64,000 nucleotides of DNA from a virus. Its lineage: Duplodnaviria > Heunggongvirae > Uroviricota > Caudoviricetes. A model generated the notes under the pieces. It had not been told where the DNA came from and made no database searches. It saw only the letters and a program-made list of their open reading frames with translations. Location: positions 64,001-128,000 of IMG/VR virus record IMGVR_UViG_3300001528_000174; one strand, written 5' to 3'. Made by a program: the position numbers and the translations under genes. Positions 26,301-51,330 of the stretch are shown here, in pieces; within the stretch, counting starts at the first letter, position 1; every line of letters starts with the position of its first letter.

Positions 26301-26942
26301 ACTAAACTAACTGCATTAAAAACTGCTTGGAAAAATTTTGAAACTAATAACATTGAGCAATATAACTACTATAATCCAGATAAATCTCAGAAATTATATT
26401 CTATTATAAATAATTAGTATTATAGTAAAGCATATAAAGTTTTTGTTACTTACAATATTAGAGCATCTATATCTAGTTAGATATTTTAGAAAGATTATTT
26501 ATCTATATTAGAAGGATTTCAAAATTCTCAAGTAATGGCTCTTAATATAGATACTACTAAGGACGTTACACTAAATAATATTATTGCCGAAAATACTATA
26601 TGTACAATACCTTCAGCTAAACATTTAATAGAAGATATTGCAAATAATACATCTATAGCCTATATTAATAGTAAGACTAATAATATTCTTTAGTAGGATA
26701 GTGAAGGAAATCCTTTGAAAGAAGGAGTTGTTTATAAATACGATAGTACAAAAGGTTTAATCAAAAATAACTAGTTAAAAATACAAGATAATACATTATA
26801 TACATATAATGTAGGCTCTAAATTAAAAACTTATCCGAAGTATGGATGGAGTTCAAAAGATTCTTCTTCACATTGCACAGCAACCTTAGGAGGTATACCT
26901 ATGATAACTTTAAAAGATACTTCACTTTATAGCATACAATAA
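23277..26942 (+). CDS. Tail muzzle/stabilisation-related protein (N-terminal type), 1221 aa (code 15)
   Basis: MQAQNTFNEGMVLDSHPLMTPNTVLTDALNAT..LQNDMGN..GYIPVGMKEYGGIIYI..SQIGCFPSPQR; whole frame scanned without TAA/TGA. Confidence 0.75.
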
Positions 26943-29900
26943 TGAATATTACTATTAAACCTTTTTTATATCAATTAAGTAATAAAGGTTATATGGCATG
27001 GGAATATAATCCGTTTCATAATCTTAGAATCACAGACACTAAAAATGCTACTAGTACTAGAATATTAACATATAATATTTAGAATTAGTTTGATACAAAA
27101 AAAGTTACTTCTTTAAAATTTAAATTAGCAAAATCTAGTAATCGTATAGTTTATGATTATAATTTTCATACTAAAGAAGATTTAAAAGAAGGTGTGAAAT
27201 GTGATATTATATCTAAGGATTCTCAAACTCATATTATTACAGCTATGCCATGTATGAAGTATACTTATTATTACTTAGATGACAATGGAAATATGAATGA
27301 TAAAATATATATTACTGAGGAATCTTTTTTTAATATAAATGATTGCGAATATAATTTTCCTAATAGATATATTTTTAATTCTGATTCTTATATACATACA
27401 GATAGTGAACAAAAGTTGCCAGATACAAATATGACAACTAGTAACTTATAGAATTATAAATTTAATATAAATTCTTAGAATTAGTTAGAATCTAGTATTA
27501 TATATATAAAAATTAACTCCGAAGAATCGGATAATGTAGAAGCTGGAAGTATTGTAGATTTGGATACTTCTTTATTAAACTTTGATTTGGAACATCCAAT
27601 TACTATGGATATATAGCCATCATATGATGGAACTGTTAATGTTATTTTTAATGATAATAAAAATATTCCAAGGTTAATTAATTCTAGATTTTCTACTACA
27701 GAATTAAATACCTACGAAATAGTAGATAGAGTTGGGGATAATGATACTAATATATATGATTAGAATTCTTTTGATTTAGATTCTTCTTTATATAAACGAA
27801 TAAATAGTATTCCTAATGTTAAATTTTTAGGAGTAAATTCTTCAGGATAGTTAAAAGTAGGAAATTATAACTTTTACTTTAAATATGCCGATGCTGATGG
27901 TAATGAGACAGATTTTGTGGCAGACTCTGGAGTAGTGGCAATATTTAAAGGAAATGATTGTGACCCATTCTCTATTGATGGAGGAATAAGTGATGAAAAT
28001 GCCTTTAAAGCAGTGTCTTTTTAGCTAGACAATATAGACTATAGTTATAACTATATAACTGTATATTATACTAGAAATACTGGGGATAGTTATTAGACTA
28101 GAAGTACTAAAGCTTATAAAATAAATGATAAATATATAGTTAAACATTAGATTTGTACTATTAATGTAACTGGTTTAGAGGATTCAACAGAAATACCTAT
28201 TTCAGAAATTAATAATTAGTTTTTTTAGGTAAATAAAGCAAAAACTAGTGCCCAATGTTAGAATAGATTATTTTTAGGAAATGTAGCTAAACCTGATATT
28301 CCATATAAAGATTTAACTGATTTAAGTTTGAGAATGCTTCCTGTATTAAATAGTGTAGATTCAAAAAATAATATAGGTGAAGTAGGTTTTAATTATACAG
28401 ACGACAGCAGTATTATTAATAGTTATGAATACTATAATGTAAAAAATATATATTATAATGTCGGATATTGGGATAATGAAATATATAGACTTGGAGTAGT
28501 ATATATAATGTCTGATAATTCCTTATCTGAAGTATTTAATGTTAGAGGCGGTAATAACATTAAAAATATTACTGACTATACTCTTACTAACTCTGAAATA
28601 AATCCAGAAATATTATATAATGATAACGGAGATAGGTAGTATATAACTATTGATGAAGATACAAATTGTTTACATGGAGGAAAATCTTTAGAAAACTCAA
28701 AAGGAGTGGTAAGATTTACTAAAAATACTTAGGGTAATGATTATATTCATTATATTCAAGTATTAGTGCCAACAGTAGTATTGAAATATTTAAAAGATAC
28801 TTATGATATTAAAGGATTATTTTTTGTAAGATAGAAAAGAAATCCTACATTATTAGCATAGGCTTTCACAATGTCCTACGATTCTGAAGCATAGTGTCCA
28901 GCCATTTATTGTAAAGAAACCAATTATATAGAATCTTTCTTAACTTAGCGTCCTACAGAAACTACTAATAAAAAAGGACTTGCAGCAATTATAAATAAGT
29001 ATTTAGAAAGTAAATAGTCTGGTAAATTAGTTTAGGATTATGATAAACATTTATGTGTGTTAAAAAATACTAAAAGTAATAATGACATTATAACAGCTAT
29101 ATGTCCAGAGTTTATGATTAATTAGTCGCGCTATAATTCTTTATTTACTGGAACAGATTATATTATTGAATCTGTTAATAAGTATGGAGGATTGGAATAG
29201 CAGGATACTAATCATAGAATGTATAATGCTACTGGTGGAGATTTTATAAATTATGTAGGTAAAGCTAAAATTATATCAGTAACTGATGATACCCCTTCAG
29301 TAGCTATTGGTGATACTATTTTTAGAAGTAAATTAGGAGACGCTGAAGAGGCTTATTAGTTTAGATATATTGAAGTAAATAATAGATCTAAGAGCGATGC
29401 CTATAATTTAGTAAGAGGTATCTATTCTCCATATCTTGGAATCGTATCTAAAGGTAATTTACCATATAACTCACTAATAAATATCTACATTCCAGGATAT
29501 TCGGAATCTTAGATGGGCAATTATTTTGCAATTCGTTATGATGATAATACAGCTTATTACTCAATAGGAGATAGAATTGATATAAATACCGCTATACATG
29601 ATTGGAAAGAATTAGATAATAACAAAAATTATCAATATACAACTCTAGCAAGAGGAGATTGCTATTTATGTACATTTACACATAGATTAAATCGTAATTT
29701 TGCCGATTCTTCCAATCCATATAATGATGAAATCTTAGACGAAGATACTTGGAGAAATAACTATGATGCTAACAATTCTGAGAAACTATAGAAAATAAAT
29801 AGAGGAGATGTCAATGCTGTATAGTTAGGAAGTTGGATTACTTTTAGATTAAGGAGTTCTACTAATTTATCTATTCGTTCTATTGATGATAGTAATCTCA

Positions 29901-32290
29901 ATGAGAAAGGTATATTTGGTAGACCTAGAGCTTGGTATCCATATCAACAAGACTTAATTTCAGGTAATAATAAAATACCAGAATCTTATTTGTATAATGA
30001 TGGATTACGTAGTACATTAAATGAGAAATATTATTTTAATGTTCCCGAAGTACCATATATAAAAAATATTTACTAGAATCGTATTATATATTCAGATATA
30101 GCAATAAATGATGCTTATAGAAATGGGTATAGAGTATTCAAATCTACTAACTATGTAGATTACACTAAAGAATACGGTTCTATTATAAAATTAGTTCCTA
30201 TGGGGTCTAGTTTAATATGTGTATTTGAACATGGTGTAGTACTTTTACCAGTAAATGAACGAATACAAACTGGAGAAGGTGATGGAGGAGCAATTTTTAT
30301 TAATACTAAAAATGTTCTTCCCGAAAATCCATAGGTAGTACTTTCAGATATGATAGGTTCTCAGTGGGCTGAGAGTGTCGTGAAGACTCCATATGCAGTG
30401 TATGGGGTAGATACTGTAGCTAAAAAAATTTGGAGGACTGACGGACGACAATTAGAGACTATTTCTGATTTTAAAGTTAATAAATTTTTAGTTGATAATT
30501 TATCATTATCTGAGCGTGAGACAACTCCTATTATAGGTATTAGAAATGTAAAGACCCATTATAATGCTAATAAGAGTGATGTAATGTTTACATTTTATGA
30601 TTAGAAATATGGATTTGAAGATAAAGCTTGGAATTTATGTTATAATGAAATTACTAAATCATTTGTAACATTTTATTCTTGGTTGCCGTCTTATTCTGCT
30701 AATATAGATAATATTTTCTTTACCTTTGACAGGAATGTATCTAAATATATAGCAAAATTAGGATTAAATAATATAGAAAGTAATAGTAAAAGTGGATTAG
30801 TTGTTAGCGCAAATGTCTTACCAATTAACTCTTCAGATGCTTATACTAATGATATAATGCAAATAGAGGGTATATATGATAGATATATTCCTGAAAATTT
30901 GGGATAGACTAAAGTTACTTTAGAAATTTTGCCTGGATTAAATCATTCAGAAAAGTATGTATAGTTTTAGTACTTTGCTTAGGATGGAGATTCTGTAATA
31001 AGCAAAGAATCAATGATATTACCAAATGTTAATATCAATTCTGATGGAACTATTGAGTAGGGGAAGGCTTACATAGAAGTGATGGTAGGTGATATATTAA
31101 GAGAATGGGATAAAAGACAATCTGAAGAAGAGAAGAACCAAATAGCCTCAGATAAACGAGAATACTTAGTCCCTTCCGCAGTTAGTGCGGCTGGATTAGG
31201 TAACTATTACAAAGTATATAAAATATTAAATAGTAATTTATTAGCTATTAATATTAGAGCTACTTTAGGAACAGAAGATTCAGACTCTGCTGATACCTTT
31301 GGTAAAACTTCATTAATTAATAGTGGATATTATGATTTCACTTTATATTTTACCTTCTCAGAATTTTTCTATAATAAGCAAAATACTGAAGTAACTAAAT
31401 TATTGCCTGCATTCTTAACCAATTTTTGGAAACATGGACAAGCTGGAATTATTGATACACAAGAACATATTAAACCATGTTATTGGTATAATAAACAACA
31501 TCCATTTGAATTTGAATTTGTCGTAAAAGATAACTCAGTTAAATAGAAAATTTGGGATAATCTTTAGATTATATCAAATAAAGCAGAACCTGAATCATTT
31601 CATTTTGAGATTAATGGTGATAGTTATGAATTTAGTAAAGACAAACCTAATATGTGGTATAGATAGGAATTAACTAAAAATACCTATCAAAACTTAGGTT
31701 CAGACATAACTTATGACCATTTATATAATGATTCTAAACGTGGAATAACTCCTGTATAGAATGTTAAATCAACAATTTTTCCATTATATTATAATAGATT
31801 GGATTCTGTTGATGAAATAGAAGATTATTATCATACTATGACGTCCCCTTCTGATAGAGACTATTCTAGATTATCAGGTTCTGAAATAGTTCGATATGAA
31901 GATTTAAATTAGTATAATATATCTACTCATGTTAAAAACTTACCAATTCCTACTTATGGAGTATTAAAAGGTAATTCTTATTACTAGGAAGATGAATGGT
32001 ATATTTAGATACCTTCTATAAATATTGCTTAGAAAAATGAAGCTACTTGGAAGGATGGTAAACCTCCTATTGTATTAAATTGGATTCCTAATGACTTAGA
32101 TAAAACTGAAATTAGTGATGAAGATTTACCTAATACATATAATATAGGAAATGTAGATACTACTGGATGGACATACCGATAGTAGGTGCCTATGAAAGAT
32201 AAATATATAAAAATAAAGATACGATATACAGGAAATGACTTAGCTATCATTACTGGAATATTAACAACATATAGACTAAGTTATGTATAA
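26942..32290 (+). CDS. Tail stabilisation (muzzle) protein, 1782 aa (code 15)
   Basis: TAATG overlap; track ORFs 27194-31546 all in one frame; YGVDTVAKKIWRTDG, FTFYD..WNLCYNE..FVTFYSW.PS, HPFEFEFVV motifs; internal gaps only spot-checked. Confidence 0.78.
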
Positions 32291-34034
32291 GAAAATTAAA
32301 AAATTTCAATCGGGGGGAGGCACAGGGTAGTCTCTCCCTAATCCTGTCTCTTCTTTTAATCCTAATCTTGCTAGTATTACTGCTTAGTAGAATCTAACTT
32401 TTAATACTCCTGATATAGGTACTATGGTAAGTAATTAGTTCTCTAATTTCTCATCAGATATTACTGGATATAGTAATGTCCCATAGACCATAACTTCTGA
32501 GTCAGGATTTACCAGACCTGATATGTCCAAAATGAATTTACAATAGATGGAAGCATCTATGAAACCATCTTTTGGAAAATAGTTAGGAGCTAATATATAG
32601 AATTATGCTGCTTCTTATGCTATTAATAAATTAAGTGATTTTACAGGTTTGAATAGTGCTATTAATGGTATTACTGGTGGACTTACTAGTTCTAATGGAG
32701 TAGCCACTAGAATGATAGGAGGAGCAGCTAATGCGGCGCTGAAAGGAGTTGCTAGTGGAGCCATTAAAGGAGCTGCACAAGCTGCTGGCAAATCTTTAAC
32801 TACTTCTGCTATAAGTTCTGGATTAAAAGCTGGAGCTAAAGGAGCCTTATCTTCTATGGGAAGTGCTGCTGGTATTGCAGGTCTAGCTAATGCAGGTATT
32901 CAAGTGGCTTTTGGAAATCAAAGAAAAGCAGGTTGGGAAAACGCTGTAAATTTGGTAGGAGGTGTGGCTTCTATGATTCCTGGAGTAGGATGGGGATTAG
33001 GAGCAGGATTAGCTGCTTTTAATCTTATTGGAGGTCTTACAGGAAAGAAAACTATAGCTGCTACTGGCAAAGATTGGCAATCTCGATAGGCTTAGAATCA
33101 AGTCTCAGGAAGTTATAGTGGAGCTATGGAAAATATTGCGGATGCTGAATCTAGAGAAGGTACTTATAGTGGATGGAACTCTAGTGGTAGGCATAAAGCT
33201 AATAGACTTATCGCGAAAACTAATGGATGGAAAGACACTATGTGGGATTGGAGCTAGAGGAATGATTTAAATGATATTAGAAGTAATCAAATGAGTTCTA
33301 TTAACAGCAATCAATATCAAACTGAATTAAGCGGGGGCTATGACTTAGCTAACTCAGGAAGAATGTTAGTTGCTAAAGAAGGAGCTAAATTATTTGACAC
33401 TTATAAATCAATAAAAGAATATACTAAAAAAATAAAGTCTGCAAAATAGGGTTCTAAATTAGAAATACAAGAATCTAAGATAGAAGAACCTATTATAGAT
33501 AAAGAATTAGAAAGATATTATGATGACCCTTTATTCTCTACTAAATCTAAATATAATGATGATTTTCATTAGGGAGGAAGCTGGTCCGAGGATGGTAAAG
33601 TATTTACTCCGTCTAAATTTTCTTTATTTAATTTTACAGAAGACTAGATAAAAGAAGCATTATCTAATGAATTTCCTGAAGCTACTTTAAATATATCTGA
33701 TGAAGTACAAGCTTTTAAAGAAGGAGGAAAAGTTAATTCTAGAGATATGAATGTTATTCCAGAAGGAGCACTTCATGCTAGATTAAACCACATGAATAAC
33801 GAAAAATTTACTAAAAAAGGTATTCCTGTGGTAGCTAAAGATGGAGATAAATTAGAATAGACTGCTGAGATTGAAAGAAATGAGATAGTTTTTAATTTAT
33901 CAGTGACTAATAAACTAGAAGAACTTATGAGAGATGGTTCTGCTAAAGCTGCATTAGAAGCAGGTAAATTATTAGTTGAAGAAATTCTTCATAATACTAT
34001 AGATAACACTGGACTAATAAAGGAGGTTGAATAA
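32283..34034 (+). CDS. Internal cargo (ejection) protein with Gly/Ala hydrophobic segment, 583 aa (code 15)
   Basis: Starts MYKKIKKFQSGG; hydrophobic region 32649-33060; C-terminal MNVIPEGALHAR..TKKGIPVV..AEIERNEIVF; position after the muzzle as for crAss cargo genes. Confidence 0.72.
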
Positions 34035-34654
34035 TGGCAGAAATAAATAATAAAGAATCTAACTTAGTAAACATTACTATTGGAGATAAAAAATATAAAG
34101 TAGAAATTGCTGATACTCCTGAAAAATAGGAAAAGGGCTTAATGGGTCGAGAGTCTTTACCTTCAGATTAGGGAATGTTATTTATATATGACGAACCTCA
34201 AAATATGTCATATTGGATGAAAGATACTTCTATTCCATTAGATATAATTTTTATAGATGATGATATGGAAGTAGTTTCAGTTAAATAGGGACAGCCAATG
34301 TCCGAAGAGCCTATTACTGAAAAAGACGTCCAATATGTACTTGAGGTAAATATCGATTCTGGAATTGAAGAAGGAGATTAGCTAATAATAGAAGATTCTG
34401 ATGAAAATGAATATTCTATGCATATTCTTTTTCCCGATGGTTCTGTACAAATGAATTTAAAAGGAGGAGAAAGAATTGTCAGTAGAAGAGAAACTAAGAT
34501 ACTCATTAAGAAAGCAAAAAAAGCAGAAGCATCTAAGACTGATGGAGCCTATCGAGCTCTTGGACGATATATCTTTAAAGTTTTACAACGTCAAGATTCC
34601 CGTGAGCCAGAATATGTTGATAGCCCAAAAGATAAAGATGACACTGGTAAATAA
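34034..34654 (+). CDS. DUF192-family protein with C-terminal extension, 206 aa (code 15)
   Basis: EIADTPEKQEKGLMGRESLPSDQGMLFIY..YWMKDTSIPLDIIFID..YVLEVN. Confidence 0.82.
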
Positions 34655-34757
34655 TTTAATGTTATAATTATATAAATTTAGTTTTAGTTATTATTATTTT
34701 GTACAAAATAAAACTATACATATAGTTATAAAAATAAAGTTTAACTAATTATTAATT

Positions 34758-35057
34758 ATGGAATACAAGTTTATTAAGAAATTTTAGGATGGTGGAGCAA
34801 TGGCTCCTGAACAAGCTGCTCAAGGTGCAGAACAGGGCGCTCCTGCTGGTTAGGAAGCAGGTGCTGAGCAAGATCCAATGGCTATGCTATTGCAGGCATC
34901 AGCTCAGGCTTTGTAGAATCAAGATTGTAATATGGCTATGCAAGTATGTCAAGCTTTGGTACAAATGGCTCAACAAGGTCAAGGTGGCGCTCCCGAAGAG
35001 GCAGGTCAACCAGTATACCGTAAAGGTGGAAGACTTGTTCGTAGAATTAAGAAGTAA
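34758..35057 (+). CDS. Small Gln/Ala-rich protein, 99 aa (code 15)
   Basis: MEYKFIKKFQDGG...YRKGGRLVRRIKK*; aattATG context; biased codons; own terminator. Confidence 0.8.
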
Positions 35058-35074
35058 TTTAATGTATAAAATTA

Positions 35075-35107
35075 ATAGGGGAGCATCTTATGGTGTTCCC
35101 CTTTTTT
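35075..35107 (+). terminator. Intrinsic terminator
   Basis: aggggagcatc-tta-tggtgttcccct followed by ttttt. Confidence 0.75.
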
Positions 35108-35112
35108 AATTT

Positions 35113-38100
35113 ATGGCAGAAAAAAATATAAAAATCTCAGGAATAGGTGATGTAACTCGTGAAGATTTTGTTCGAGCAATTACTGACCCAGATAAATTTA
35201 GGGAATTTGCAGACTAGCAAGGTTGGGGTAATAAACGTCGCTAGTTAGCATGGAATTCCCTTCATAACTATGCCTAGGGAGTATAGAATGGTGAAATAAA
35301 TGAGATAAATGATATGCATCAAGTAGTTGATGATACTGGTGTTAGAACTAATAAAAAAGAAAAATATAATTTAATAGGAAGTAAATTTGATGCTAATGGT
35401 GCTACAGCAGCATTTATGAATTAGATAGCTAAAGGTATGTCTAATGTTTCAAATTCTACAGATAAGACTTTAAAGGCAGTACCTACTGTTACTTCTTATT
35501 TAAATAATTATTTATTTGGAAGCAATAATCCTGATTGGATATTATTCTAGAAAAATGATACTTTAACAAATGGAGTATATGGTATAAATAATAGAAGTGC
35601 CAAATTAAAAGAAGGGCTACAGAATTTAAAAAATGAGTTAACTATTAATGGTGCTCAATATAATTGGGATGGGGTTGATAAGGACGCCCTTTATAAAAAT
35701 TTAGATGCAGCTATTGCTTCTTCTAATGTAGCTACTTATGCTCCATTAGGTATTACTTCTGACTATATTAATAATGCTCTTGCTACTAGAGATTTAAGTG
35801 GTACGATATAGAAACAGCCTTCTGAAAATAATCAAATTTAGCCTAGTCAATCTTCATAGGGAGTAACTGATGAACAATTATTAGCTATGGATGGGAATAA
35901 AGATTTAGCAGATTTAGTTGCAGTTAATCCTGCTAAAAAAGCTAGTTATATAGCTTAGGCTAGAGAACGTTTAGTTAATCAAATTACATTAAGTGAACAA
36001 GAAGCTTAGAGGAACACTAAAACTTATCAGAATCAAATAGCTGCTTAGAAATAGCAGTAGTATAATCAAGAAATGCTTAATTGGTTTAACTCTTAGACAT
36101 TTAAACCTGAATATACTGCTTAGTTAGGAAGCTCCTATGTAGGTACTCCTGGAGGGAAAGAAAGTAGTACTTATTTAGATAGCTTAAATTTTAGTGATAA
36201 AGATTTTCAGCTAAATAGTCCAAGAACAGTTTCAGCTATAGCCAATTTTACTAAGTTTAAAAAACCAGAAATTAGAACTGTAAAGACTGTTAATGGAAGT
36301 TCTTCCATAAAATTAAATAATAAGTTAGACGTATTAGCTTATATGTTGCAATTTAATGCTAAAAACAATCCTAATTTTAAAAAATATTTTACAGACGTAT
36401 CTAACTCAGTAAATAAACCTGAAGGTTCTATTTATAGAATAGATGCTTTAAAAGATAATAATGGTTCTTATGTATATGTAAAAAAGAATGGTAATAATTA
36501 TGAATTTTATCGTTCTAAACCTATGGATGCTTTATATAAAGAACATTTAGCTAAAAAACATAAATTAGGAGGTATTATTACTAAATTTTAGCAAGGAGGT
36601 GCTGCTGCCTATAATGCAAAATTAAAACAAAGATAGCAACAAATTTAGAAAGTTAAAGAATAGCAAATTCAATCTCAACCACAATCAACTCCTACTGGAA
36701 GAACTGCAGTAAAAGATATGAATAGAAATACTAATACTCTTACTACTGCTGATAAAGTAGCTATTGGAGCAGCTGCTGCTGATTTTCTAGCTTCATTTAC
36801 TGCAAATCCTATAGCTAATGGTGCAGGAACTATTTTGACTACAGGGGCAGATTTAGCTAGTGATATAAGTCATGGGGCATCTGTAGGACAAGCCGCTGGA
36901 AATGCTGCTATGAATTTGGGTATGGGATTAATAGGATTTATTCCTGGATTAGGAACAGCCACTAAAGCTAAAAAATTAAAGAAAATATTATAGTTTTCTT
37001 CAGGAGCTATTTAGTCTTATTTCATAGCTAATAATTTTACTGAAGGAGTATAGTCTCTAGGTAAAGTATTAAATGGCTCGGCTACTGTGTAGGATTATAA
37101 AAATCTTATCTATGGATTACAAGGAGCTAAAGGAGCAAGTAATTCTGTAGTAAATATGTCCAAACGTAAAGGTGCCTCTAAAGTAATAAATTCTTTACCT
37201 GATAAATTTAGTGCTGGAGAATCTCGATATACTTTTAAAAGTAATGGTAAGGAGACTCAAAGGCTAACTTCTGCACAAGTAAAAGAACTTTAGGAAAAAG
37301 GTTCAGAAGGAGTATCTGATGATGTTAAAAAATTACTTAATGGAGTTGTTATAAAACCTAAGGAAAATAAATGGTAGAAACCAATTGAATATCAATATAA
37401 ATCTAAAGAAGAAATACAAAAAGCTTTAGATGATTTAAATATACAATCTCAGAAGTCTAGTATGTGGAATCCTGGAAGATAGGATTATTTAGCTATGACT
37501 GCTGAACATAATTGGTCTTTACCTAGTATTTCGTTACACTTTGGAAAAAATAGTACTAGTGAAGTTATTAATAGAGGTAAAATAAAACCTACAAATACCT
37601 AGAAGCCTAAAAAGAAAAATTTTAATAAAGAGAAAGAGGCTGGATAGGAATTAAGAACTCTTAGAGCTGAAAGAAATAATTATAAAACATACGACTAGGA
37701 TTTTGCAGAACGTAGAGATGCCCTATAGAAGAGTATTCAAGAAAGAAAAGCTCTAGCCAATGATTTAGCTAGAGGAAAAGCTGAACTTAAAAATGCTCAG
37801 ATTGATACTCAATTACGTAATACTCTCCCTGGTATGGGATAGAGAATAGTGTCTCCTGAATCTGTTAGAACAGAAGCTAATCGTCAATTTGCTCTAAGTT
37901 GGGTTCCTGATAAATCTAAACCTGAATTAAAAGGTGCTGCTCGGGCTAAAAAATAGGCTATGTATGAAAGAATATTTTCTCCATCAACAGCAGAAAGAGT
38001 TGGAACAGGATCTACAGTCCAACATCCTTCTAGAAGAACTGTTGAAAGCAGAAAACAATTACAAAATGCAGTATAGTAGGAATTTTTAGCTAGATAGAGA

Positions 38101-40161
38101 TAGCAAAATGCTCTCATATTATCACCTACTGAAAGTAAATAGGCTATATATCAGCAAATGTTTTCTCCTACTTTAACTAGACTAAATAATGAAGCTCAAG
38201 CTATGGGAATGAGAGCAAAACCTTCTAAATAGGATATTGAATTTGTAAGGAGTTAGGAAGCAAGAGCAAAGCAAAAATAGAGTCGTCAAAGAAAGGCTTC
38301 AGAAGTTATGGAGGCTTTTAAAAATACTCCAAGTAATAATACTAAGGGTCATAATAAAAATACAAATCTTCCTCATAAGCAATCTAATAAGAAAAAGAAA
38401 ACTAGCAGAGATAATAATATTAAAAGACGCTAGGATGGAGGAATATTGTATGATTATAATTTCTTAAAGTCTGTTCACGCTTTTTAGAAAGGTGGTATTA
38501 TTAAAGCTCAAAAGGGTACTAAAACTAATAATAATATATGGGCTGGTAATAATTAGGACTATGGTTATAATACTTATTTAAACAGAATATATGGAGATAA
38601 TGATGTTTTATCTTGGATGAGAACTCATTATAATGGCAATAATGCTACTAAAGCATATGCTGATTATGTTATGAAGAATGTAAATGACCGTAGTACTTAT
38701 GGTATAAATAATTATAATAACTCTTCTACATATACAGCTAATAATGGTATTGCTATTTTTAATACAGGTTATTAGAATAATGGAGATACTTTAAACTATA
38801 TTTTATTTGGAAATAACTATGATAATTATATTAACAAAAAGGGAGTAGCTTATAATCTTATAAATTTTACTAGACCAAATAATGCTATGCATACTGGAGA
38901 TAGTTATAATACTGACTCTAGTAAAGCTTATATAGATAATGCTTTAGGTTTATAGACTTACTCTCGTGTGGCTTCCTTAACTGATTCTAATATTAAATCA
39001 GGAGGATTTGGGGATTGGGGAAAATATTGGAAAGATTAGGGTAATACTGGTGCTTATTATTATATAGCTCCTAATGACACCTCTGGTAAAGGGTAGTGGA
39101 TTCCTACTAATGATAAAACTTTAAATGGTTATTAGGACTTTGAAGCTGCTCCTTAGACTACTCCAAAAGAATCTTCTAAAACTACTCCTACTAATATTGG
39201 TAAAAAGTCAATATTTGATAAAGATAAAGAGTATTTATCTAAATTAACTAGTAATCCAGGTAATTTATATAATGCAGTTGAAACTGGTAAATATCTATTA
39301 GCTAACAAAGCTACCAATGATATATTTAAAATAAAAGCTCCTAATTTTACTATTTCTCCTAAGCATACTAGTTATTAGGTAATGGATAATCTAGCTTAGC
39401 AAAATGCTTATCATAGTAAAGCTGCTGAAACTTTAAATTAGACTTCTAGACCTATTACTTCTAGTGGTCAATTATAGACAGCAGCTTAGCAAGAAAGTAT
39501 GAATAATGCTAATAAATTATTTTTATAGGGTAATGTCGAGAGAAATACTTGGTTAGAAGGATAGAAATAGTAGGCTTACAAAGCTGGACTATACAATATG
39601 GAAAGCTCTGTGGATACTGCTAATGCTAATGCTCAATAGGCATATAAAACTAGACGGATTAATGAATATCAAGACCCTAGAGACCGACTCAGAGGACTGG
39701 CTACTAATAGACAAAATTGGATTAATGCTTTAGAACAATTTAATATTATTAGTCCATATGTTGAAAGAAAAAATGCTCAACAGCAATACGGATTAGCTAA
39801 AGCTCAATGGGATTACCAAAATAATCAAAAAGTTTAGGATGCTTTAAGAGCATATCAACTAGTAGTACGATAGAATCAAAATAATTTAAATTTTGACCCT
39901 TATACTACTTAGCAATATAAAAACTTAGTAGCCGCTTAGAAAGAGGCTGGAGCAGACTATTATAATAATATGTATCAAATATATGGTATTAAAAATCCAG
40001 GATTTACTTTTAAAAAAGGAGGTAAATTTGAGGATATTTCAAAATTTAATACTAAAGAATTTTATAATACTGTAAGACATAGTATAAATACCGCCACTAA
40101 ACAAGGAGGAGATTTAGGTAAACTTATAAATACTTTATTTAAGAAAAGTAGTAAGAAATGA
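35113..40161 (+). CDS. Large internal cargo/ejection protein, 1682 aa (code 15)
   Basis: Whole frame scanned, only TAG interruptions; ends TGA; hydrophobic Gly/Ala hairpin 36718-36960; several xGG motifs. Confidence 0.8.
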
Positions 40162-42074
40162 ATTTAAAAATACAGAAATTTGCAGAAGGAGGTACTTCCT
40201 CCTCTGCATTTTTTTATTAGCCTTTAGCTATGGCTACTACAGGAGTTGAAGCAGAATCAGACACTGCTAAACTTATAAAAGCTATGACAGCAGCTAATAA
40301 AAAATCATCTAGTGATGACAATACAGGGAAAATAACAGACAAAGATTTTCTAGGATTACTAAAAGAAGTTGATGGTCTTCCTAGTGACATCTTGAAATTA
40401 TATACATAGGCTCAAAACTTTTGGGCTGACCCAACGAATACTGGAGATACTAATTATTCTAATTTTGCATAGCTATTAACAAGAATGTCTTTGCAAGCTA
40501 AAATTGCAAAATTTAATAAAGAAGTTTGGAATAAATCTAGAGATACTATGTTTGCTAATCACGCTGAAAATGAGATGGCAATTACAGATTAGGGTGATGT
40601 AGTAATAGAAACCAAAGATGGGGGAGTAGATACTATATCTATAGATAAATGGAAGCAAAATCCATATGCATATAAAACATTAACAAATGCCGATGTAATG
40701 GAATTACGTGCTTAGAAACTTCCAGGAAATAATGCCATTCTAAATATAGTAAATGGAAGTGTTAGTATGGATTCTATTACAGATAAATTATAGAAAATAT
40801 TAAAAAATGCTTAGACTAATGAAGTATAGTCTTATATAAGTAGTGATAGTGTTAATACAAAGTCTGGATTAACAGTACTAGAAGGATTAGCACAAAGAGG
40901 CTTAGACCCTTCAACATTAACTATGCAGGGCGTTTATAAATATACTACTAAAGAAAATGCTAATTAGGTAGCTAATTTATTAAACTATGCTTGGAACTCT
41001 TTATCTACTAAAGAATAGACATTATTAAAAGCCAGAGCAGGTAAAGGAGGCACTGGAGCAGATTAGTTACTAAAACTACTAGCCGTTGGAAATACTTCTT
41101 TTGAAACTAAAGTAGACTATTAGGATTAGTTAAATTCTGATGGCACTAAAAAAGATACTTCTAAAAATGGAAAAAGTGGTTCTAATGGTTCTTAGGAAGG
41201 TGATTGGGAGGAAAAGGCTGATGCTAATCCAGCATATATGATTTAGAATGGTATAGGTGGATAGGACACCTCATATTAGTTTATGCCTGACTCCGCTAGT
41301 GCTGTAATGACTCTATATGGTTAGAAATATGGAGATATTAAAAATGCCCAAAACAAAGAAACTATACAAAGTACTAGTATAGCTGATATGCTGAGTAAGT
41401 CTGGATTATAGGGAATCAGTGATACTAGAGCTATATATTTTGGCGATAAAAGAATAGATGATCCTGAAAAGCTTAAAGACATTATGTACTTAAATCAAGG
41501 AGGAATGAGGGTAAATTTGCCTGCTAAAACTGATAATTATGGTAATAAAATTCCTGATTTTGAATTAATTCCTAAATTTGAATAGGCAATGAAAGAAATT
41601 AGAAATATACCTTAGAGTACTAATGTCAAGGCATATCTTATTAAAGAGGCTCAAATACTTAAAAAGTACGGTCTAAATGATTTAGTAGATTCCAAGGGAT
41701 TACCTAATAAAGATAGATTTGGTGCCTTCTTAGTAGTAAATGGTCAAGCTTCTTCTGATACCGTTGGAAATCCTACATTAGCTTCTACTATAAATAATAT
41801 GGATGCAGATTTTGAGGCTATGTCGAAAATATTATATCCAGATGGAAAAGGTGGAGCTACTTAGGAATTAAAAGGAGCAAGTATTGCTCCATTTGGTTGG
41901 TTTAATAGTAATATTTATAAAGCTCCTGTCTATATTCCTCTAGACAATAATCCAGCTTCTACTATGATATTAACTGGAAAAGTTACTCCTAATATGCTTA
42001 GTGCTATGGAAGGATTATACAGAGCTTAGAATATTCCAATTAATAATACTAGTTCTAATGTTTTAAATAATTAA
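40158..42074 (+). CDS. Internal virion protein, 638 aa (code 15)
   Basis: ATGA overlap; MNLKIQKFAEGG...; absent from the track; ends TAA 42072-42074. Confidence 0.75.
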
Positions 42075-42076
42075 TT

Positions 42077-45000
42077 ATGCTAAATAACGATTGGATAGTA
42101 GCCAATATAAATAATCCCGATTATAGTGCTGAAATGTTTAAAATGAAAGGGATAGATACAGATAATACTTAGATGTTAAGTGAGGATAGTTATCTTAAAT
42201 CTAATTTTATTATAAATAATCCAGCTTTTGCTGATAGAAATGGTAATTTTAGTAAAGATAAATTCCATAATTACTATCAAGAACAAGCTACTAAATGGGG
42301 AGAATTATAGAAAGATAAATTAGTACATACCATCTATGATATGTTTGATGTAAGGTAGAAACCTGGAGATTAGATATATAATCCATTTACAGGAACTACT
42401 TAGGGTATGAATACTGATAAAAATAATCCATTAGGCTCTTTTATAAAGTTAACCGCTAATCCTACTAATTAGGGGATTGGTATTAGTGGTTTTTAGGAAT
42501 TAAGTAATTAGAAAAAAAGTACTAGAGAAATTGCTCAAGGATAGAATATTTTTGATTCGTCCACTGGAAAATTTATAAATGAAACTCCTGATGAATTATC
42601 CTTATTCTCTAATCCTATTAAATATATTAAACAAATATTTAGTGATCCATTAGTGCTAGCTACATATGATAGTGATGGTGAAAATATTGACCCAATATCA
42701 GGATAGAAAGTAAAGCATTCCAAGGGAGATTTAAAATTAAATGATAATGGAAAACCTTATTATGAAACTTTAAATGGTAGAAATCCTGCTACTAAATAGG
42801 TTTTATCAATGGGTGATATAGTTACTTCTGAGTCTTCTGCTTTAAATAAATATGACTTTATTGATTCAGATGATATGGATAAAAGTATCAGTGGAACTAT
42901 ACTTAAAAATGTAGCTTCAGTGTTACCTTTAGCTGTTCCTTATGTGGGGGAAGCTTATAGTGCTGGATTAGTAATAAGAGAGTTAGCTAAAACTACTCCA
43001 ATGTTGTATGGTATGCTGAAATCTTTGTTTTCAGATAAACCTGCTAATAGTTAGTTCTTAAACTCTTTACAAGGTAGAGCTATGGCTGTGTCAGGAAGTA
43101 CTTCTGATGCAGGACAGAATGCTATATGGACTTGGGAAGGAGTATTTAATATGATGGGAGATGTTGCTACTCAATGGGGACAATAGAAAGCTGTAGCAAA
43201 TTGGACTAAAAAATTATTAACTGGAAAATAGGATTTAAGTAAATTAGCCGAAGAAGAAGCTAAAACCCTGTATGAATCTAAAATATAGGATATTTTAACA
43301 AAAGCTAATACTGCTGAAGATAAATATAAAGCCCTATCTTTATATGGTATAGAGGAAGGTTAGATTGCTAAAATATTAGAACAAGAAGGTAAAGCAGTAG
43401 GAGAAGCTTGGAAATAGACTTCTGTAGGTTCAGCTGCCTTACGTAAGACTTTTGATATTTATAAGCCAAGAATAGAAAAATTAAATAGATTAGGAGCTAA
43501 TGCATCTTTAGCATATATGGCATTAGTATCTAATACTGATGTATATTAGAGTATGTTAGATGCAGGAACTACCCCTAGAGAAGCCGCTGCTGTAGCTTTA
43601 GGATCTACTCTTGGTATGTATACAGTTGATAGATTAGGTATTGGTGAATTATTTTTTGACGAATTAGCAAAAAATGATATGCGCCAAATAAAAAATGCTT
43701 TACTTGGAGAAAAAGAAAATTGGGCTAAAGCACTTGGGATTTCTACTAAAACTATTCCTGAAGATGCTAATAAATTTAAAAAGCTTATATTAACAGGTAG
43801 AGATAAAATGGCTAAAGCTTTATCAGATTATGCAGATGATATAAAATATCATACTACTGGAGCTGTAGGTAAAGCTATTGGTGAAGGTCTTGAAGAAGTA
43901 TCAGAAGATGTAGTAACAGACTTATCTAAAGCTACGTATGAAATGCTTCATAATTTCGGTTTAACTACTCAAGCTAATGTAGGAGCATTTGATTATGATC
44001 CAAATCTTAATGGTGAAGGAAAAGGAGGATATAATATAGCTTAGTTACTTTCTAGATATGGAATGAGTTTAGTAGGAGGTTCTCTTGGTGGAGGTATGTT
44101 TTATGGAGTTGGGGTTTTACAAGGTAAAAACTTTCATATAAATAAAGACTCTGGTAATATGCTTTATTTAACTAGGGAAGGTAAAGCAGAAGATATGATA
44201 GATACTATTGAACAAATGCGTAAGAAAGGACAATTTGGAAGTACTACTATTTCTGCTACTAATTCTACTACTGATAGTGCTGGAGAACCTGTTAATATTA
44301 CTGTGGATGGTGATTTATCTGTAAATGATTATATAGCTAAAAGACTTACTAATCAAATACGTTCTTACTAGACTATTATGGATGATAATAATTTAAATAA
44401 ATCTGATGAATAGTTATTTAATCATATGATAATGTAGGATAAAGTATTCAGAAATCTTAGAGGATTTTTAGAAGATAAATCCTATATAACTCGTTATCAA
44501 GAAACTTGGTAGAATTTAGCACAGCAAGTAGTAATAGCTCAAAAAGGATTAGAAGTAGCGGCTTCTTCTAAAAATGGTGAAATTCCTAAAGAATTAATTC
44601 CTGAATTAGCAACAGCAGCAAGTTCTAAAGAAATAATTGATAAATTAGGAGAAGCTAGATTAATGGATTCTACAGAACGTCATAATAGTGGAGAAGAGGC
44701 TAAACGTGCTTAGAATGTAGCAGCTTGGTAGGATTATTTAAATAATAAAAAATAGGAGTTGCTAAATTTTGAATCTCCTGAAAATTCTTCTTACTATACT
44801 GAAATGTTAATGTTTGGTATAGACCCTATTACATCTTCTACATTTGGAGCGTATGATTTTAATTCTTGGTTATATAATACCCAACATGGATTAACTGTAG
44901 ATAAGTTAACTTAGTAGGAAGTAGAACAGTATAAAGCTGATTATTAGACTTATCAAGCTAATGCTCAACCTTTAGACCTATAGGAGTCTTTTAAATTATT

Positions 45001-46693
45001 CAAGGATTGGTAGCAAAAAATTGATCCATTTTTATAGTAGATGGCACAATAGGCTTAGAACTATGACAGCTATCAAAGAGAAGTACAAGAACTATTTAAA
45101 GATGGCATAACTTGGTATCAAAATGCCAATCATCCAGAGAATAAACAATGGTATGAAACTGATTAGGAATATGAGAAATCTAAATAGTAGGATGGGGAAT
45201 CAGCACAAGATTATAAAGTTAGACAAGAATAGAGAATTTAGGAAATAAATACAAAGGTTGAACAAAAACTTTAGGATTTAGTAAACTTTGTAAATATTCA
45301 TATACTAGATCCAATTACTTCCAGACAAATTAAAACTATGCTAGCTGCCAGAACTAAAGATATTAGAAAAAGCATAGTTCTAAATACATTTACCACATAG
45401 AATGATAACCTTATTAAAGAATTAACTGGAGATTCTTTAAAATCTTATAAAGGTAAAGATATTGATTCTTTAAGAACGGAAATTATTGGTACAGACACTA
45501 TTCCAGGAAAAATCGACTAGTATTTTGGCAAACTATATGGATAGTTTATTCATCCTGATTATGAATATGATAAAGATGCTAATGCAATGATTCCATTTAC
45601 TTCTTTATTTAATACTAACTCAAATAGTTTTAGCAATATAATAGTATCGGATTTATTAAACTAGAAAAGTATTAATGAAACTGCTCTACCAAAGTTTGAG
45701 GGAACTACTATAGAAAAAATATAGAATCTTTTACAATTATCCTCTATTGGTTTAGATAATATTTATAGAGGCTCAGACTCTCGTTATTAGGGGAAATCTT
45801 ATAAATATATATTAACTGAAGTTTTTGGAAAAGATGTTGTAGATAGAATAGAAAATTCTTTAGAAAATTCAGAATATATTGACCCTGATACTAACTAGCA
45901 TTATAATTTATAGTACATAAATCCTTATAAATATATAGCTAATGGAGAACAAATCTCTGATGAATTAATTGAAAATTGGTTACAGGAACATAAAGATATA
46001 TCAAATAATTCTATACAGTCTCTATTTAAACTATAGTCTTTAATTCAAAATAAAAATACCAACTTTGATGAAGCTAGAAAATCAGTAAATGATAGTTATA
46101 AATCTTATGCAGAAGCTATACTAAATTAGGTTGAAAATGATATAAATAGTAATTTACTTTATTAGACTTTAACTGGGTTAACAGAATCATTACCAAATCC
46201 TATAGTAGAGCTAGCTAAACATTTACCTGTGTATAATGAAAATGTAGAATCAGTAATTTAGAAAATGTATTAGCATTTTGAAGACGAAGAAGACGTTAAT
46301 ACTTTCCAATTAACAGGTTAGGAAATGCAATCTTTACAATAGGTTGAAACAGTATTAAATTTAGCATCTACTTATATTCATGCTGCTTCTACAGATTAGG
46401 ATTTAACAAATATATATGGACATAATAAAACTATAAATAGATTTAACCAAGAACATAAAGTAAAATCTAATCCATTAGCAGAAATTGATGAAAATTATGC
46501 TAATATTTATCAGATAGAAATAGGAAAATATTTAAATTTAATTAATCCAAATAGTTATTCCCTTCCATTTATTTCAAATATAAATCAAAGAAACATTATA
46601 GGATAGTTTGACTAGGCTAAAGAAAAGTTTAATCAAGCTAAAAAAGAATTTTTTAAAGCAAATAGAAATAATTTTGAGGCATGCGTTGTGTAA
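42077..46693 (+). CDS. Giant internal virion protein, 1538 aa (code 15)
   Basis: ttaattATG start; frame open to TAA 46691-46693; ends ...NNFEACVV*. Confidence 0.78.
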
Positions 46694-49600
46694 ATCTATT
46701 AGAAAATTACTCAGAAGATATGGACTTAAAAGATATAGAAGCATTACTATATGAAAACTATCATAAATATAAAGGATAGGGTTATGATGTAAATGCCATA
46801 TTTGATTAGTTCATAGATAATATAAATAAATAGGAAACTACTAATTTGGATTAGAATGTTTCTTATACTACTTTTAATAATTATGATAAAATATCATATT
46901 TATTAGCTACTATTGGTATTAAATCTGATGATTATTTATCCTTTATAAAAGATGAAGTTAATAAATATAATAATATAGTACCTATTGATGCTCAGTTATA
47001 TTTAGCTAGGATAGGAATAGCTGCTATAAATAATCCTCAATTAGTATCTTCAGTAATAAATAGAATAAAACAAAAATCAGATATTAAAGTTCCTATATTA
47101 GATAAATTATTATTTATAAGTGGGATTGGTGGTTCTGGTAAAACTTCAGTAGTGGCTAAATATATCACTGATTATGCTAAAGATAAGCATATAATGGTTG
47201 CAGGACCGACAGATGCTCAAGTAGAAGGATTAAATAAATCCTTAGGAGTAACTGATGGAATTAATGCTTAGTAGTTGTTATCTTTAGTTATAGATAATGC
47301 TAAATATAAAGATTTAAATGGAAAGTTTAATAGGTTAGATAGTACTGATAACTTAGATTCTATAATTAGTAATGTTGATGTAAAAAATCATGATTCAGGA
47401 GTATTAGTTATGGATGAGATAACTCACTTTAGTACTTTAGATTTAGCTTTAATAAATAAATGGGCAAAGAAAAATAATATATTTATATTAGGTCTAGGTG
47501 ATGATACTTAGTCAGGATATACTACTAATAGAATAATAGCTAATATAGATACTGATAATGCTTTCTGTTTACGAACTCCTAGACTTGCTATTTCTTTAAG
47601 AAATGGTAACATACAACAATCATCTGATACTAAATTATTATATGAATTAACCTAGTAGGTACGAACTTTAATAAATGATGTAATGCCTAAAGATAAATAT
47701 ATACAGGCTCGTAATGCTATTAAGAATTACTCACCTAGATATAGTTATTCCTCTGGAGAATTACATGGAACAGTTGTAACTGATTCTTTTGACTAGTGGG
47801 ATATGATTCCTAAAGACACTCCTAAAGGTGTAGCTTATATTGGACTTAATGATATTACTAGTAAAATTCCTTCAGCTGTTAAATTTAACAATATTAAAGA
47901 ATTACAAGGTTAGGAATTTGATTATTTAATTTATGAAGGTAATATTAAAGCTCAAACTGAAGATTATAGTGATACAGCAGTTGGTGATCTATTAAATAGT
48001 TCAAGAGAGTTATATACATTAATAAGCAGAGGTATTAAAGGAGCTGTTATTATATCCCCTAACTCTGGATTTAGTAGTACAGAAGAATTTTATACAGGAG
48101 ATACCACTGACTTCTCCCAATATGCAGAAGAGCGTAGAAATAATTTAATTAATGAATTGTCAGAATATACCTATAATCCAGCTACAAATACTAGTACAGA
48201 AGAAACTAGTAATTCTTCTGAAGGAACTGTGGAAACAGTAACTCATTATAATATGGCTGATTTAGATGAAATGGTAGCAGATTTAAATATAACTCCTACT
48301 GACAAAGAGTCTTTGGATTCTGAAAATAGAGAAGCTAATTAGTTTACTGTAGAATCTATATTGGACGCTCCAGCAGAAAATAGTTTTGATAGATGCTATG
48401 GTAATTTTAGTTTATTAGGGCTAACAAGAAATTCAAAAAAAGAATGGATTCAAGATATTAATTCTAACGATTTATCCGATATTGGAGTAGTAGCTAGATT
48501 TAATAATGCTAAACAAATTATCTCTGATGGTAAAGATAAAGATAAATTAGTACGTCAATTACTTACATTAAAATATGCTTTAATGTAGGTTAGAAGAACT
48601 GATACTGATGAAAGATGGGATGGAGTAACTTTTATGGCTAATCATCCAGAATTATCTCAATATTTTAATTCTCCTGAAACTTTTGAAAATTTAAAATATT
48701 ATGTAACTTTAAGAGAGAAAAAAAATACTGATTTATTAGTAGGATTTTCTGATTTAAATAATGATAAAGTATCATTTAATTATAATGGAAAGTAGTTAGT
48801 TGCAGTTGTAGAAGCAAAATGGACTACTACTGATAATGAGGGTAATTTAGTAAATAATACTATAACTCTAGGAAGTTTACCTAACCCTGATAGAAATGGT
48901 TCTTATTCTAAATATGCAGATGAACATCCTGAATTGATACCCGTTTATGATAATTATGTAAAATAGTTTAAAGCTATTTATGATGAGGGAGGTTAGAGAG
49001 AGATAAATGCTCCTAAAAATCTAATAACTTTATTGAAAAAAACTAATTCACAAATTCCATTTTAGAAAGTTAGATCTCAGCAAACATGGAAATGGGAGCG
49101 TACTATTAATGGTGAAACTTTTAAAGGAACTACTGAGGGAATTTTAAGAGATGCTGACACTATAGATAAAGCTGCTTTAAAAGATAGAGGTTATCTGTCA
49201 GTATCTGATCTTATAGTTTATATGGGAGGAGCAAATACTCTACCAGGATTAAATCCTAGAATGGAAGGTCAAGCAATTTATTTAGTATCTAGTTTACCTA
49301 ATATGAGTACTGAAGAATTAGTACAAATGTATTGTAATAATAAATTAAATACTAGCTCTGATAATCTAGATAGAATGAAGGTGCGTATGATAGCACCTAC
49401 TCATAGAGGATTATCTTTTTAGGATTTAACTAATTAGGTATGGCAAGATATGTATACTTTAAAAGCTACTGAGACTGAAAGTGCTAGTAAATATCCCTAG
49501 GATTAGACTCAACTAGGTCTTAGAATGTATACTCATTTATGGAATACCAGAGCTAATTTGAAGAGAGTACTTGCTGCTTTACAAGCTAATCCTAATGATA

Positions 49601-51330
49601 CCTTACATATATATAATCAATTTAGAAAGTTAAATCCTGAAGGATTAAAAAATAAAAATCTACGTTACTACATAGGGTGGGATGAGAAAGATAGGAATGA
49701 AGCTTTCTTAAAATTTACTAATAATACATATTCTTGGGACGATAATACTCCAATAGTTGATGGTTTAAGAGATGCTTTTATAGCAGAACAGAAGTCATTA
49801 AAAGAATCCGACCCTAATAAATTAAAATATTATACTTATGCTACTCCAGAATATATGTAGTAGATGCTCAAAGTAGTAGATGGAGCTTTAGCTCCATTTA
49901 AAGATTTTATTACTTTAAAAACTTATAATGAGGATGGTACTACTTCTAATTTTGATGAATCTAACTATATAACTTTTGATAAACAGGGTAATACTAATGA
50001 TATTCGTAAGTTATTTATGCATTCTCTAAACGACTATCAAGAAAATAGTAGAACTTATGAGTTTGCTTTTCCTACTTATGATTCTAACGGAAACGAACGT
50101 ACAGTATTTGTAAATCTTGATTAGGATGTAATAAAGTCTTAGCAACAACTAGCTGAAGCTAGAAATAATTAGTATAAACCTTGGAATATCTTTAAAATAG
50201 TACCTATGATACTTACTAAAAATTATAGATTTGTATCAATGGCTATGTCTCCACAAGGTAATAAACTTTGGAATAAAGATTCTAATAAATATAAGTATAA
50301 ATACACTGACTCTGAAGGTAATAAACAAGTAAAAATATTACCAATGTAGGATTTAATAAAAGCGGGTCAAGAAATAGGAAGTACTACAGAATTTACTAAT
50401 ATAGTAGATTTGATTTTTCATGGTACAACTAAAGTACAAGATCCAAATGTATTTAGAGAATCTACTGCCCCATTTAGATGGGGTATATGGGCATATCCTA
50501 GAGTAAATTATGAATAGGGAACAGAATTATTATATAAGAAAAATTCAGCTGATAGAGGTACTGCATATTTTAGAAAAATAAGAAATACTTCAGGAACTAA
50601 TAATATTAATAGTTTATATATGTCTAATGTTATTCCTATTCCTTTAGCTGATATATCTTTAAATAAACGTTCGGATATTACTACTAAAGAATAGCCTACA
50701 GAGCAAATACTTTCGGGAGTAACTAGCAATATTAATACTATAAAAAGTATGGGAGTAGTTACTGGAGATTATAGTACTACAGAAGAAGCTTTAACAGCTC
50801 ATAATAAAGAATTATCTTTATTAGATTCTGCTTCTATAGAAGGATTTTCAGAAATACCTTAGTTATTACAATTAGAAGATGGAAAATTAAATTATATAAA
50901 CTATCAAACTGAAGATATTATTCAAGGATTTGATTTTAAAACTGGAGAATCTAAAAATATATTTAAGAGTATTGATAATGGTAAATACTATATAGTTAAT
51001 AATGATGGTATAGTGGAAGAATATAAATTAAATTCTGATGATTCCAGTAAAAAGAAAAAACTTATTGAAGAAGCTATTAAAGATAAAGAAGTTTTAAATA
51101 AAATATATGATGAATTAGTTGTTACTACAGATGAAATGGGATATGATGAAGATACTATAGCTGAGGATTATATATCAAGAGATGATTTTGTAAATCTATC
51201 TTCAATAGAAGATGTAAAAAATAAAATAGAAGAAATATTAGATGATACTGCTGCTGATGGTGAGCAACCAGAGGGTAAGTATTTAGATAATATTTTAGAT
51301 TATGAAAATTGTTCTATTAATTTAGTTTAA
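46681..51330 (+). CDS. Giant virion protein with SF1 helicase-like domain, 1549 aa (code 15)
   Basis: Walker A GIGGSGKT (47122), Walker B VMDE (47407), GDDTQ, LQGQEFD, LYTLISRG; starts MRC, ends ENCSINLV*. Confidence 0.78.

Follow-up and report, generated by a model that had tools for sequence, protein, structure and literature searches.

An aromatic Gly-Gly peptide repeated in the cargo proteins of a crass-like phage as a candidate docking tag inside the virion

No phages of the human gut outnumber the crassviruses, which inject megadaltons of protein, including their RNA polymerase, ahead of the DNA. The stretch of DNA analyzed here, termed the window, comprises 64,000 nucleotides of a crass-like phage (positions 64,001 to 128,000 of IMG/VR record IMGVR_UViG_3300001528_000174) and encodes, 3' of the muzzle gene, four cargo proteins named P0001, P0003, P0004 and P0005. 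A first-pass annotation of this DNA, made from the letters alone, had noticed a short peptide ending in Gly-Gly that recurs about 13 times in these proteins, and had suggested that it is either a head-packaging address or a cleavage site for a maturation protease. The analysis reported below establishes that the motif is cargo-specific, protein-level and deeply conserved, and leads to a tentative interpretation of it as a docking tag. No description of this motif was found in the searchable literature.

The four cargo proteins, which together amount to 3,002 amino acids (aa), and the motif copies that they carry are the following:

32283..34034, plus strand: P0001, 583 aa by translation, with a tag at the N-terminus, a hydrophobic region rich in Gly and a C-terminal domain that is conserved.
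32298..32318, plus strand: KKFQSGG, the N-terminal tag of P0001 (residues 6-12), found as KFQSGG, KFELGG or KFKLGG in orthologues.
33564..33578, plus strand: FHQGG, the internal copy of P0001 (residues 428-432), present in every close relative that has the gene.
33711..34031, plus strand: AFKEGG (33711-33728), the pre-domain copy of P0001, followed by the C-terminal domain (NVIPEGALHARLNHM, further on EIERNEIVF, then a helical hairpin).
34758..35057, plus strand: P0003, 99 aa, with KKFQDGG (34776-34796), a low-complexity Ala/Gln/Glu middle, YRKGG (35016-35030) and the basic tail RLVRRIKK.
35113..40161, plus strand: P0004, a modular cargo protein of 1,682 aa by translation.
36556-36573, 36583-36600, 38425-38442, 38479-38496 and 40009-40023, plus strand: KHKLGG, KFQQGG, RRQDGG, AFQKGG and FKKGG, the copies of P0004, in this order.
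40158..42074, plus strand: P0005, a cargo protein of 638 aa with the N-terminal tag KFAEGG (40176-40193), for which 76 homologues were found.

Translation with TAG read as Gln confirmed all 13 peptide strings at the exact nucleotide positions claimed by the first-pass annotation. Their grouping as one shared motif holds in part. Ten strings (KKFQSGG, FHQGG, AFKEGG, KKFQDGG, YRKGG, KHKLGG, KFQQGG, AFQKGG, FKKGG and KFAEGG) obey [FYH]-[KQRA]-x-G-G, with RRQDGG as a close variant, whereas AKEGAK (33372), AKQGSK (33441) and KAQKG possess a single Gly only and were excluded as members; AKEGAK aligns with a separate conserved element, G-K-x-G-M-K. The copies are located at the two ends of cargo proteins and at junctions between domains, in agreement with the placement at termini and domain borders first described. 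Residues 6-13 hold a copy in three different proteins, and the N-terminal copies keep a constant spacing from the Met, with their Gly-Gly at residues 11-13.

The codons used for the motif were considered next to its amino acids. The Gln of KKFQSGG is encoded by CAA and that of five other copies by TAG, as claimed, and at orthologous Gln sites TAG and CAA alternate (12 vs 2 at one site, 6 vs 1 at another). This interchange at a conserved Gln bears out the use of the motif as support for TAG=Gln. Every gene of the window lies on one coding strand, and the reading frames stay open only if TAG is read as Gln. Of the 13 tRNA genes detected by ARAGORN in the 180-kb genome, none lies inside the window or carries an amber suppressor (CTA) anticodon, despite the pervasive TAG=Gln of the late genes. 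The Gly-Gly codon pairs are mixed, in the proportions of genome usage. This variation of the Gly codons places the conservation in the peptide and not in the DNA, and on the same ground a DNA-level signal such as a Shine-Dalgarno-like GGAGG was rejected.

The strict pattern [KRA][FYH][QKHA].GG is found seven times in the four cargo proteins vs once in the remaining 50,363 aa encoded by the genome (Fisher p = 1.3e-8). Composition-preserving shuffles of the sequences yield a mean of 0.07 copies, and 0 of 5,000 reach seven. The tail genes and the giant proteins, from which the motif had been said to be absent, harbor no strict match, the single loose match being TFKYGG in a giant of 2,649 aa. Two of the outcomes that the first-pass annotation had set against its own proposal, namely an equal frequency outside of the cargo and a lack of conservation in orthologues, were not seen: the strict copies are concentrated in the cargo block, and the sites are kept across relatives as detailed below.

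A HMMER scan with P0001 over 1.84 billion protein representatives returned 1,197 homologues. Among the 150 best of these 1,197, nearly all match P0001 residues ~470-583, the domain opened by the motif, and 374 motif copies were counted vs 51 expected by shuffling. The copies belong to three logo classes that have in common the core hydrophobic-x-x-[FY]-[KQ]-x-G-G-x-hydrophobic. The N-terminal class displays the consensus M-x-K-L-I-K-K-[YF]-Q-x-G-G. The internal class, [IV]-E-E-F-[KQ]-E-G-G-[IK]-[IL], is found in acidic linkers in which the copies are often 20-30 residues apart, while the pre-domain class reads F-K-x-G-G-x-x-N-V-I-P-E-G-A-L-H, with a Gly-Gly that is invariant in a 59-sequence alignment (A1). 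In eight homologues, a further copy, I-x-T-L-K-Q-G-G, is located just past the domain, which is therefore bracketed, FKEGG being in front.

The AlphaFold model obtained with the 59-sequence alignment has a predicted local distance difference test (pLDDT) value below 50 for the stretch that runs from FKEGG to NVIPEGALHARLNHM (motif to HHM), and the hairpin and helices of the C-terminal domain that follow are predicted with confidence. A motif-bearing stretch that is invariant and modelled in this way fits a segment that would become ordered only on a partner. The NVIPEGALHARLNHM segment itself (33750-33794; family consensus NVIPEGALHARLHHM) is nearly invariant in the same alignment and carries a His cluster; a metal-binding or partner-binding site is conceivable. 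No PDB entry matched P0001 by sequence, and a Foldseek search of the PDB with the model of its C-terminal domain (a poor one, of mean pLDDT 61) gave nothing below E = 5. Two homologues, P0097 and P0099 (L018:1373-4021), contain extra modules of ~200 residues with conserved-looking Cys and His and no Pfam match. Because these modules are inserted between motif copies, the motif delimits swappable modules.

Conservation extends to the other three cargo proteins. The sites are retained in 13 IMG/VR loci and in MT835492 (P0005 identity of 59-81%). The P0004 orthologues, 1,417 to 1,762 aa long, retain most copies: the fourth is missed in one locus (L003), the first site is either a double copy or a single KHQWGG depending on the relative, and a distant orthologue (L015) additionally bears the N-terminal tag MSQAIRKYQTGG. 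MT835470, at 27% identity, keeps the pre-domain copy and most of the sites, and has N-terminal copies on a small protein, on a P0005-like protein and on the orthologue of the giant. Homologues of P0005 at 25-30% identity keep the N-terminal tag (KKFQVGG, KYQQGG), which in the fused P0005 relatives P0080 and P0081 is found at the internal joint between modules, as KKKYQAGGG. The distant relatives of P0003 keep both ends around a variable middle (RFQQGGP ... VFKKGGVLLRRIKK; KFQEGGP ... VYRAGGRLVRRIRK), the family patterns being [KR]FQ[EQ]GGP for the N-terminus and V[YF][RK]xGGxL[VL]RRI[KR]K for the C-terminus. A 106-aa open reading frame (ORF) in another frame, at 34789-35109, overlaps P0003 and is slightly longer, and gene callers may choose the wrong frame here. 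Judged from the conservation of both its termini in relatives, P0003 (34758-35057) is the real gene and the overlapping ORF is not. A short N-terminal peptide is common to the three internal proteins P0001, P0003 and P0005 (MYKKIKKFQSGG, MEYKFIKKFQDGG and MNLKIQKFAEGG).

The position of these genes provides a second line of comparison. The complete genome is a single contig of 180,499 bp, a length included in the 145-192 kb range spanned by the large zeta and epsilon crass-like groups (PMC10136315). Upstream of the muzzle gene come a fragment of the major capsid protein gene (PF23898) and a possible ring protein 2, matched weakly and below threshold (PF25702); a portal gene (PF16510) belongs to the same genome, beyond the window. 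Besides the cargo genes listed above, two genes define the neighborhood:

26846-32290, plus strand: the muzzle gene, by its match to PF25731.
34034..34654, plus strand: P0002, 206 aa, a DUF192 protein (PF02643, E = 1.3e-29) with a conserved C-terminal extension and NLKGGERIV at 34454-34480.

From the muzzle gene onwards, the order is P0001 (starting at 32283), P0002, P0003, P0004, P0005 and three giants (starting at 42077). Pfam and PHROGs returned no match for P0001, P0003, P0004 or P0005. In one of the giants, of 1,549 aa (46681-51330), residues 136-280 (AAA_30 and AAA_19) form the ATPase region of an SF1-type helicase. P0001, directly 3' of the muzzle gene and 5' of the virion RNA polymerase giants, occupies the slot of cargo protein C1, and the muzzle-C1-giants order is repeated in L019, in L020 and in eight Steigviridae genomes. 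In phiCrAss001, the gp45 and gp46 cargo genes and the polymerase genes occupy the equivalent position after the muzzle gene (PMC10172136).

The C1 protein of phiCrAss001, gp45, is present in the PDB (7QOG and others). Two of its segments are ordered by electron cryo-microscopy (cryo-EM), one (residues 214-245) lying on the tail rings R1 and R2 and the other (residues 425-552) against the portal wing (PMC10172136). C1 was aligned from eight Steigviridae genomes (phiCrAss001 and seven others) and inspected for the pattern aromatic-x(0-2)-GG. Conserved positions are found, in phiCrAss001 numbering, at ~17-21, 207-210, 260-264, 424-428, 443-448, 559-563 and near the C-terminus. The first of them comes after a basic N-terminus; N[YF]SA[YF]GGP is located just before residue 214, and FAEGGG at 260-264. 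At the CARG1 domain, W[KN]HxxGG[WYI]L opens the domain, EGG[ST]HE is inside and [FY]AxGG is just after it, and the last site precedes a basic C-terminal tail. Both segments of gp45 ordered by cryo-EM are bracketed by aromatic-GG copies. With 10 occurrences of the pattern vs 2.9 expected, gp45 carries such strings ~10 times as densely as the remaining phiCrAss001 proteins, and C2 of the Steigviridae set possesses no such strings. The KHxxGG variant of the CARG1 opening recurs in P0004 as KHKLGG. The published description of gp45 (Bayfield et al. 2023) makes no mention of the motif (PMC10172136).

Several features of gp45 recur here: its gene comes first after that of the muzzle; its basic N-terminus leads into aromatic-x-x-GG and into what may be a comparable hydrophobic region rich in Gly; aromatic-GG copies bracket a domain of ~105-130 residues; and a basic C-terminal tail comes after K-G-G. 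The gp45 protein is packed in the virion, where it sits on the portal wing and the tail-barrel rings, and is presumed to be ejected (PMC10172136). Unlike in gp45, the functions here appear distributed over P0001, P0003 and P0004, each with its own copies, and the motif is much sharper (F-[KQ]-x-G-G) and heads P0005 too. In the Gly-rich, transmembrane-like region, residues 187-312 of P0001 show weak similarity to residues 20-154 of the Kolpuevirus and cr106 C1 proteins, at blastp E = 1e-5 to 1e-4 in a database of 14 sequences and with biased composition. P0005 was not adopted as a C2 homologue, the blastp and profile comparisons of P0004 and P0005 with the Steigviridae C1 and C2 proteins not being significant.

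The interpretation favored here, which is put forward tentatively, is that the motif may be a multi-copy short linear docking tag that tethers the ejected cargo proteins of crassviruses inside the virion. The aromatic side chain, together with the hydrophobic residue three positions upstream, would serve as an anchor, and the invariant Gly-Gly would supply a tight turn or a hinge at the point where the chain joins a bound surface or comes off it. Multiple copies would tether the otherwise unfolded acidic chains of the cargo to fixed parts of the virion interior, for example the portal wing or the tail-barrel rings, and would mark the boundaries between tethered and free segments. The basic N-terminal version would represent a common leading-end address, placed on several separate cargo proteins, i.e. 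P0001, P0003, P0005 and, in a relative, the P0004 orthologue. We infer both the binding to virion components and the nature of these components. The head-packaging address suggested by the first-pass annotation, taken as an address or a docking site, would agree with most of the observations: the exclusivity of the motif to the cargo block, the N-terminal tag shared by unrelated proteins, the bracketing of the ordered gp45 segments and the low-pLDDT stretch of P0001.

Several points weigh against docking. PF25725, which covers CARG1 (gp45 424-555), gave no match at E <= 1 in P0001, P0097, P0099, P0157 and P0127, vs 2.3e-66 in gp45, and hhalign of alignment A1 against gp45 reached E = 0.4 over 11 columns. 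The parallel between the P0001 domain and gp45 CARG1 is one of architecture and position only. Furthermore, by our reckoning, the motif copies may exceed any obvious set of 12 binding sites. Finally, since the internal copies are found in acidic linkers and the N-terminal ones in a basic context, the two may not share one receptor.

Two known systems offer a comparison with such a tag. In phage T4, the internal proteins IPI, IPII and IPIII share ~10 N-terminal residues that direct their packaging into the prohead core and are removed by the gp21 protease. The N-terminal tag described here is likewise a short peptide, carried by several proteins that have no other relationship and that enter the head and are injected. 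It differs from the T4 capsid targeting sequence in its sequence, in that no gp21-like protease was found in this genome, and in the occurrence of internal and C-terminal copies. Encapsulin cargo-loading peptides are short, Gly-containing and terminal, sometimes repeated in disordered regions, and bind to the inner face of an HK97-fold shell. The motif shares with them its small size, its Gly content, its often terminal position and sometimes multiple copies, as well as a cargo enclosed in an HK97-fold shell; its consensus is different, and the one hint from structure concerns the portal and the tail rings, not the shell.

Among the rival explanations, an unlikely one is that the motif is a processing site cut after Gly-Gly, which would remove leaders of 12 residues, split the 1,682-aa protein and release small acidic peptides. 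The adenovirus protease (adenain) cuts (M/L/I)-x-G-G|x, the African swine fever virus protease pS273R cuts G-G|x, and C39 peptidases cut double-glycine leaders. Like these sites, the motif possesses an invariant Gly-Gly and a constrained upstream pattern, belongs to virion core or cargo proteins and forms short N-terminal Gly-Gly leaders. Cleavage is also favored by the constant distance between Met and Gly-Gly (residues 11-13), by the small residues (Gly, Ser, Thr, Ala) that are the commonest after the N-terminal tags, by the tandem copies 20-30 residues apart in acidic linkers and by the copy at the joint of the fused modules of P0080 and P0081. The consensus of adenain and Ulp1-like enzymes, however, includes a hydrophobic P4, which is not observed here: the P4 residue of the internal and pre-domain classes is Lys (60-72%) or Gln (16-24%), that of the N-terminal tags is Gln (80%), and the aromatic residue occupies P5.

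The maturation protease invoked by the first-pass annotation did not gain positive support. The C48, C5, C39, S78, S77, ClpP and S49 protease families, which take in the Gly-Gly-specific ones (C5, C48 and C39) and the usual prohead proteases, have no match in the complete 180-kb genome; for C5/C48, PF00770 and PF02902 gave none at E <= 1, a very divergent enzyme being possible. No Pfam protease is found in the window, and the DUF192 neighbor displays no protease-like fold match. PF03412 (C39) matches nothing in the phage genome and one protein of the Bacteroides thetaiotaomicron control, so that a host enzyme is possible, and the cutter might thus be a host protease or an unrecognised enzyme. 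In gp45, the copies at 426-428 and 446-448 lie within the continuously modelled segment 425-552. The bands of the phiCrAss001 virion, at ~85-100, 150, 270 and >300 kDa, fit uncut cargo proteins (PMC6235969), and cleavage is not mentioned in the structure papers (PMC10172136, PMC10136315). A literature search on proteolysis in crAss virions found nothing relevant. Most endopeptidases cut poorly before Pro, and it is Pro that follows the Gly-Gly in several conserved copies, such as those of P0003 homologues and the AYGGP of C1. By analogy with the T4 capsid targeting sequence, cleavage could coexist with targeting. Two phiCrAss001 proteins, gp66 (L035:3593-4108) and gp77 (L035:12649-13893), are annotated as an aspartyl protease and a metalloprotease-domain protein; they belong to the replication module, and neither has been linked to virion maturation so far.

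It is also improbable that the motif is an intrinsic hinge or turn devoid of a fixed partner in the virion, helping the cargo to fold back, to unfold in the tail channel and to refold, or that it acts after ejection, in the assembly of a trans-envelope channel or in binding to the host envelope. Such a role would agree with the published view that the cargo passes partly unfolded through a channel less than 50 Å wide and that C1 helps to build the trans-envelope channel (PMC10172136, PMC10136315). The motif core resembles a strand-turn-strand, copy number and spacing differ between close relatives, and elsewhere in the genome two peptidoglycan hydrolase genes contain or adjoin motif-like strings, which would all suit a hinge. 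A generic hinge, however, would need neither the conserved aromatic and Lys/Gln residues nor a 12-residue N-terminal version on unrelated proteins, and nothing connects the motif to any host factor. The motif-like strings in question are located beyond the window (G000:C1:36660-38866; L022:5661-7864, minus strand in the latter). A 142-aa ORF opens there with MLKLVPKYQKGK, similar to a degenerate N-terminal tag, and adjoins two genes, one for an SLT transglycosylase (PF01464) and the other for a phage tail lysozyme (PF18013). The tail lysozyme contains KWKHANGGIIQ, i.e. the KHxxGG variant that opens CARG1 in Steigviridae. The products of this region may be further virion-delivered wall hydrolases.

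A broader proposal, and a decidedly doubtful one, combines docking with a role for the neighbor P0002. The N-terminal version, 12-14 residues long, would be a universal leading-end address that parks the cargo at a site of the tail gate, and could correspond to the unassigned 14-residue helix-containing peptide found in six copies beside the phiCrAss001 muzzle's ring-joining domain; together with the internal copies it would set the order of exit, the DUF192 protein being a loading chaperone that reads the tags.

Taken on its own, the idea that the DUF192 protein is the reader of the motif, as an assembly chaperone or adaptor for the Gly-Gly tags of its neighbors, is very unlikely. A DUF192 gene is located directly 3' of the C1-like gene and 5' of the P0003-like gene in all six lineages examined, the loci inspected (L015, L018, L019/L020, L025 and L026) being those of every relative with enough contig, and phiCrAss001, which has a degenerate motif, lacks DUF192; both observations would suit a reader. 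The C-terminal extension of the phage version, of ~85 residues, has its own invariant Gly-Gly within L-x-G-G-E-R-I-x-S-R, along with two helices (alignment A2). The AlphaFold model of P0002 matches 3pjy and 3m7a (Z 18-19), and outside of DUF192 the closest fold belongs to a chain (6yxx, Z 11.5) from an assembly intermediate of the trypanosome mitoribosome, again in line with an assembly role. Against this, the argument is one of gene neighborhood only, and Steigviridae C1 conserves the motif without any DUF192. A search of the literature on DUF192 function found nothing relevant.

Chance, finally, deserves next to no credence: although Gly- and Lys-rich low-complexity proteins might yield such strings by accident, the four proteins contain more Gly-Gly than most proteins of the window, and the motif was defined after inspection of the data, composition-preserving shuffles never match the observed count, and this reading is in our view refuted because the sites are conserved position by position in orthologues, both at identities as low as 25-30% and in another crassvirus family.

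Through the motif, a DUF192 protein of phages acquires an initial functional setting. As a sharply defined tag of the cargo block, kept in at least two crassvirus lineages, it offers a concrete handle on how cargo is selected, retained and released in order, and it is usable to predict the genes of injected proteins in uncultured crass-like phages.

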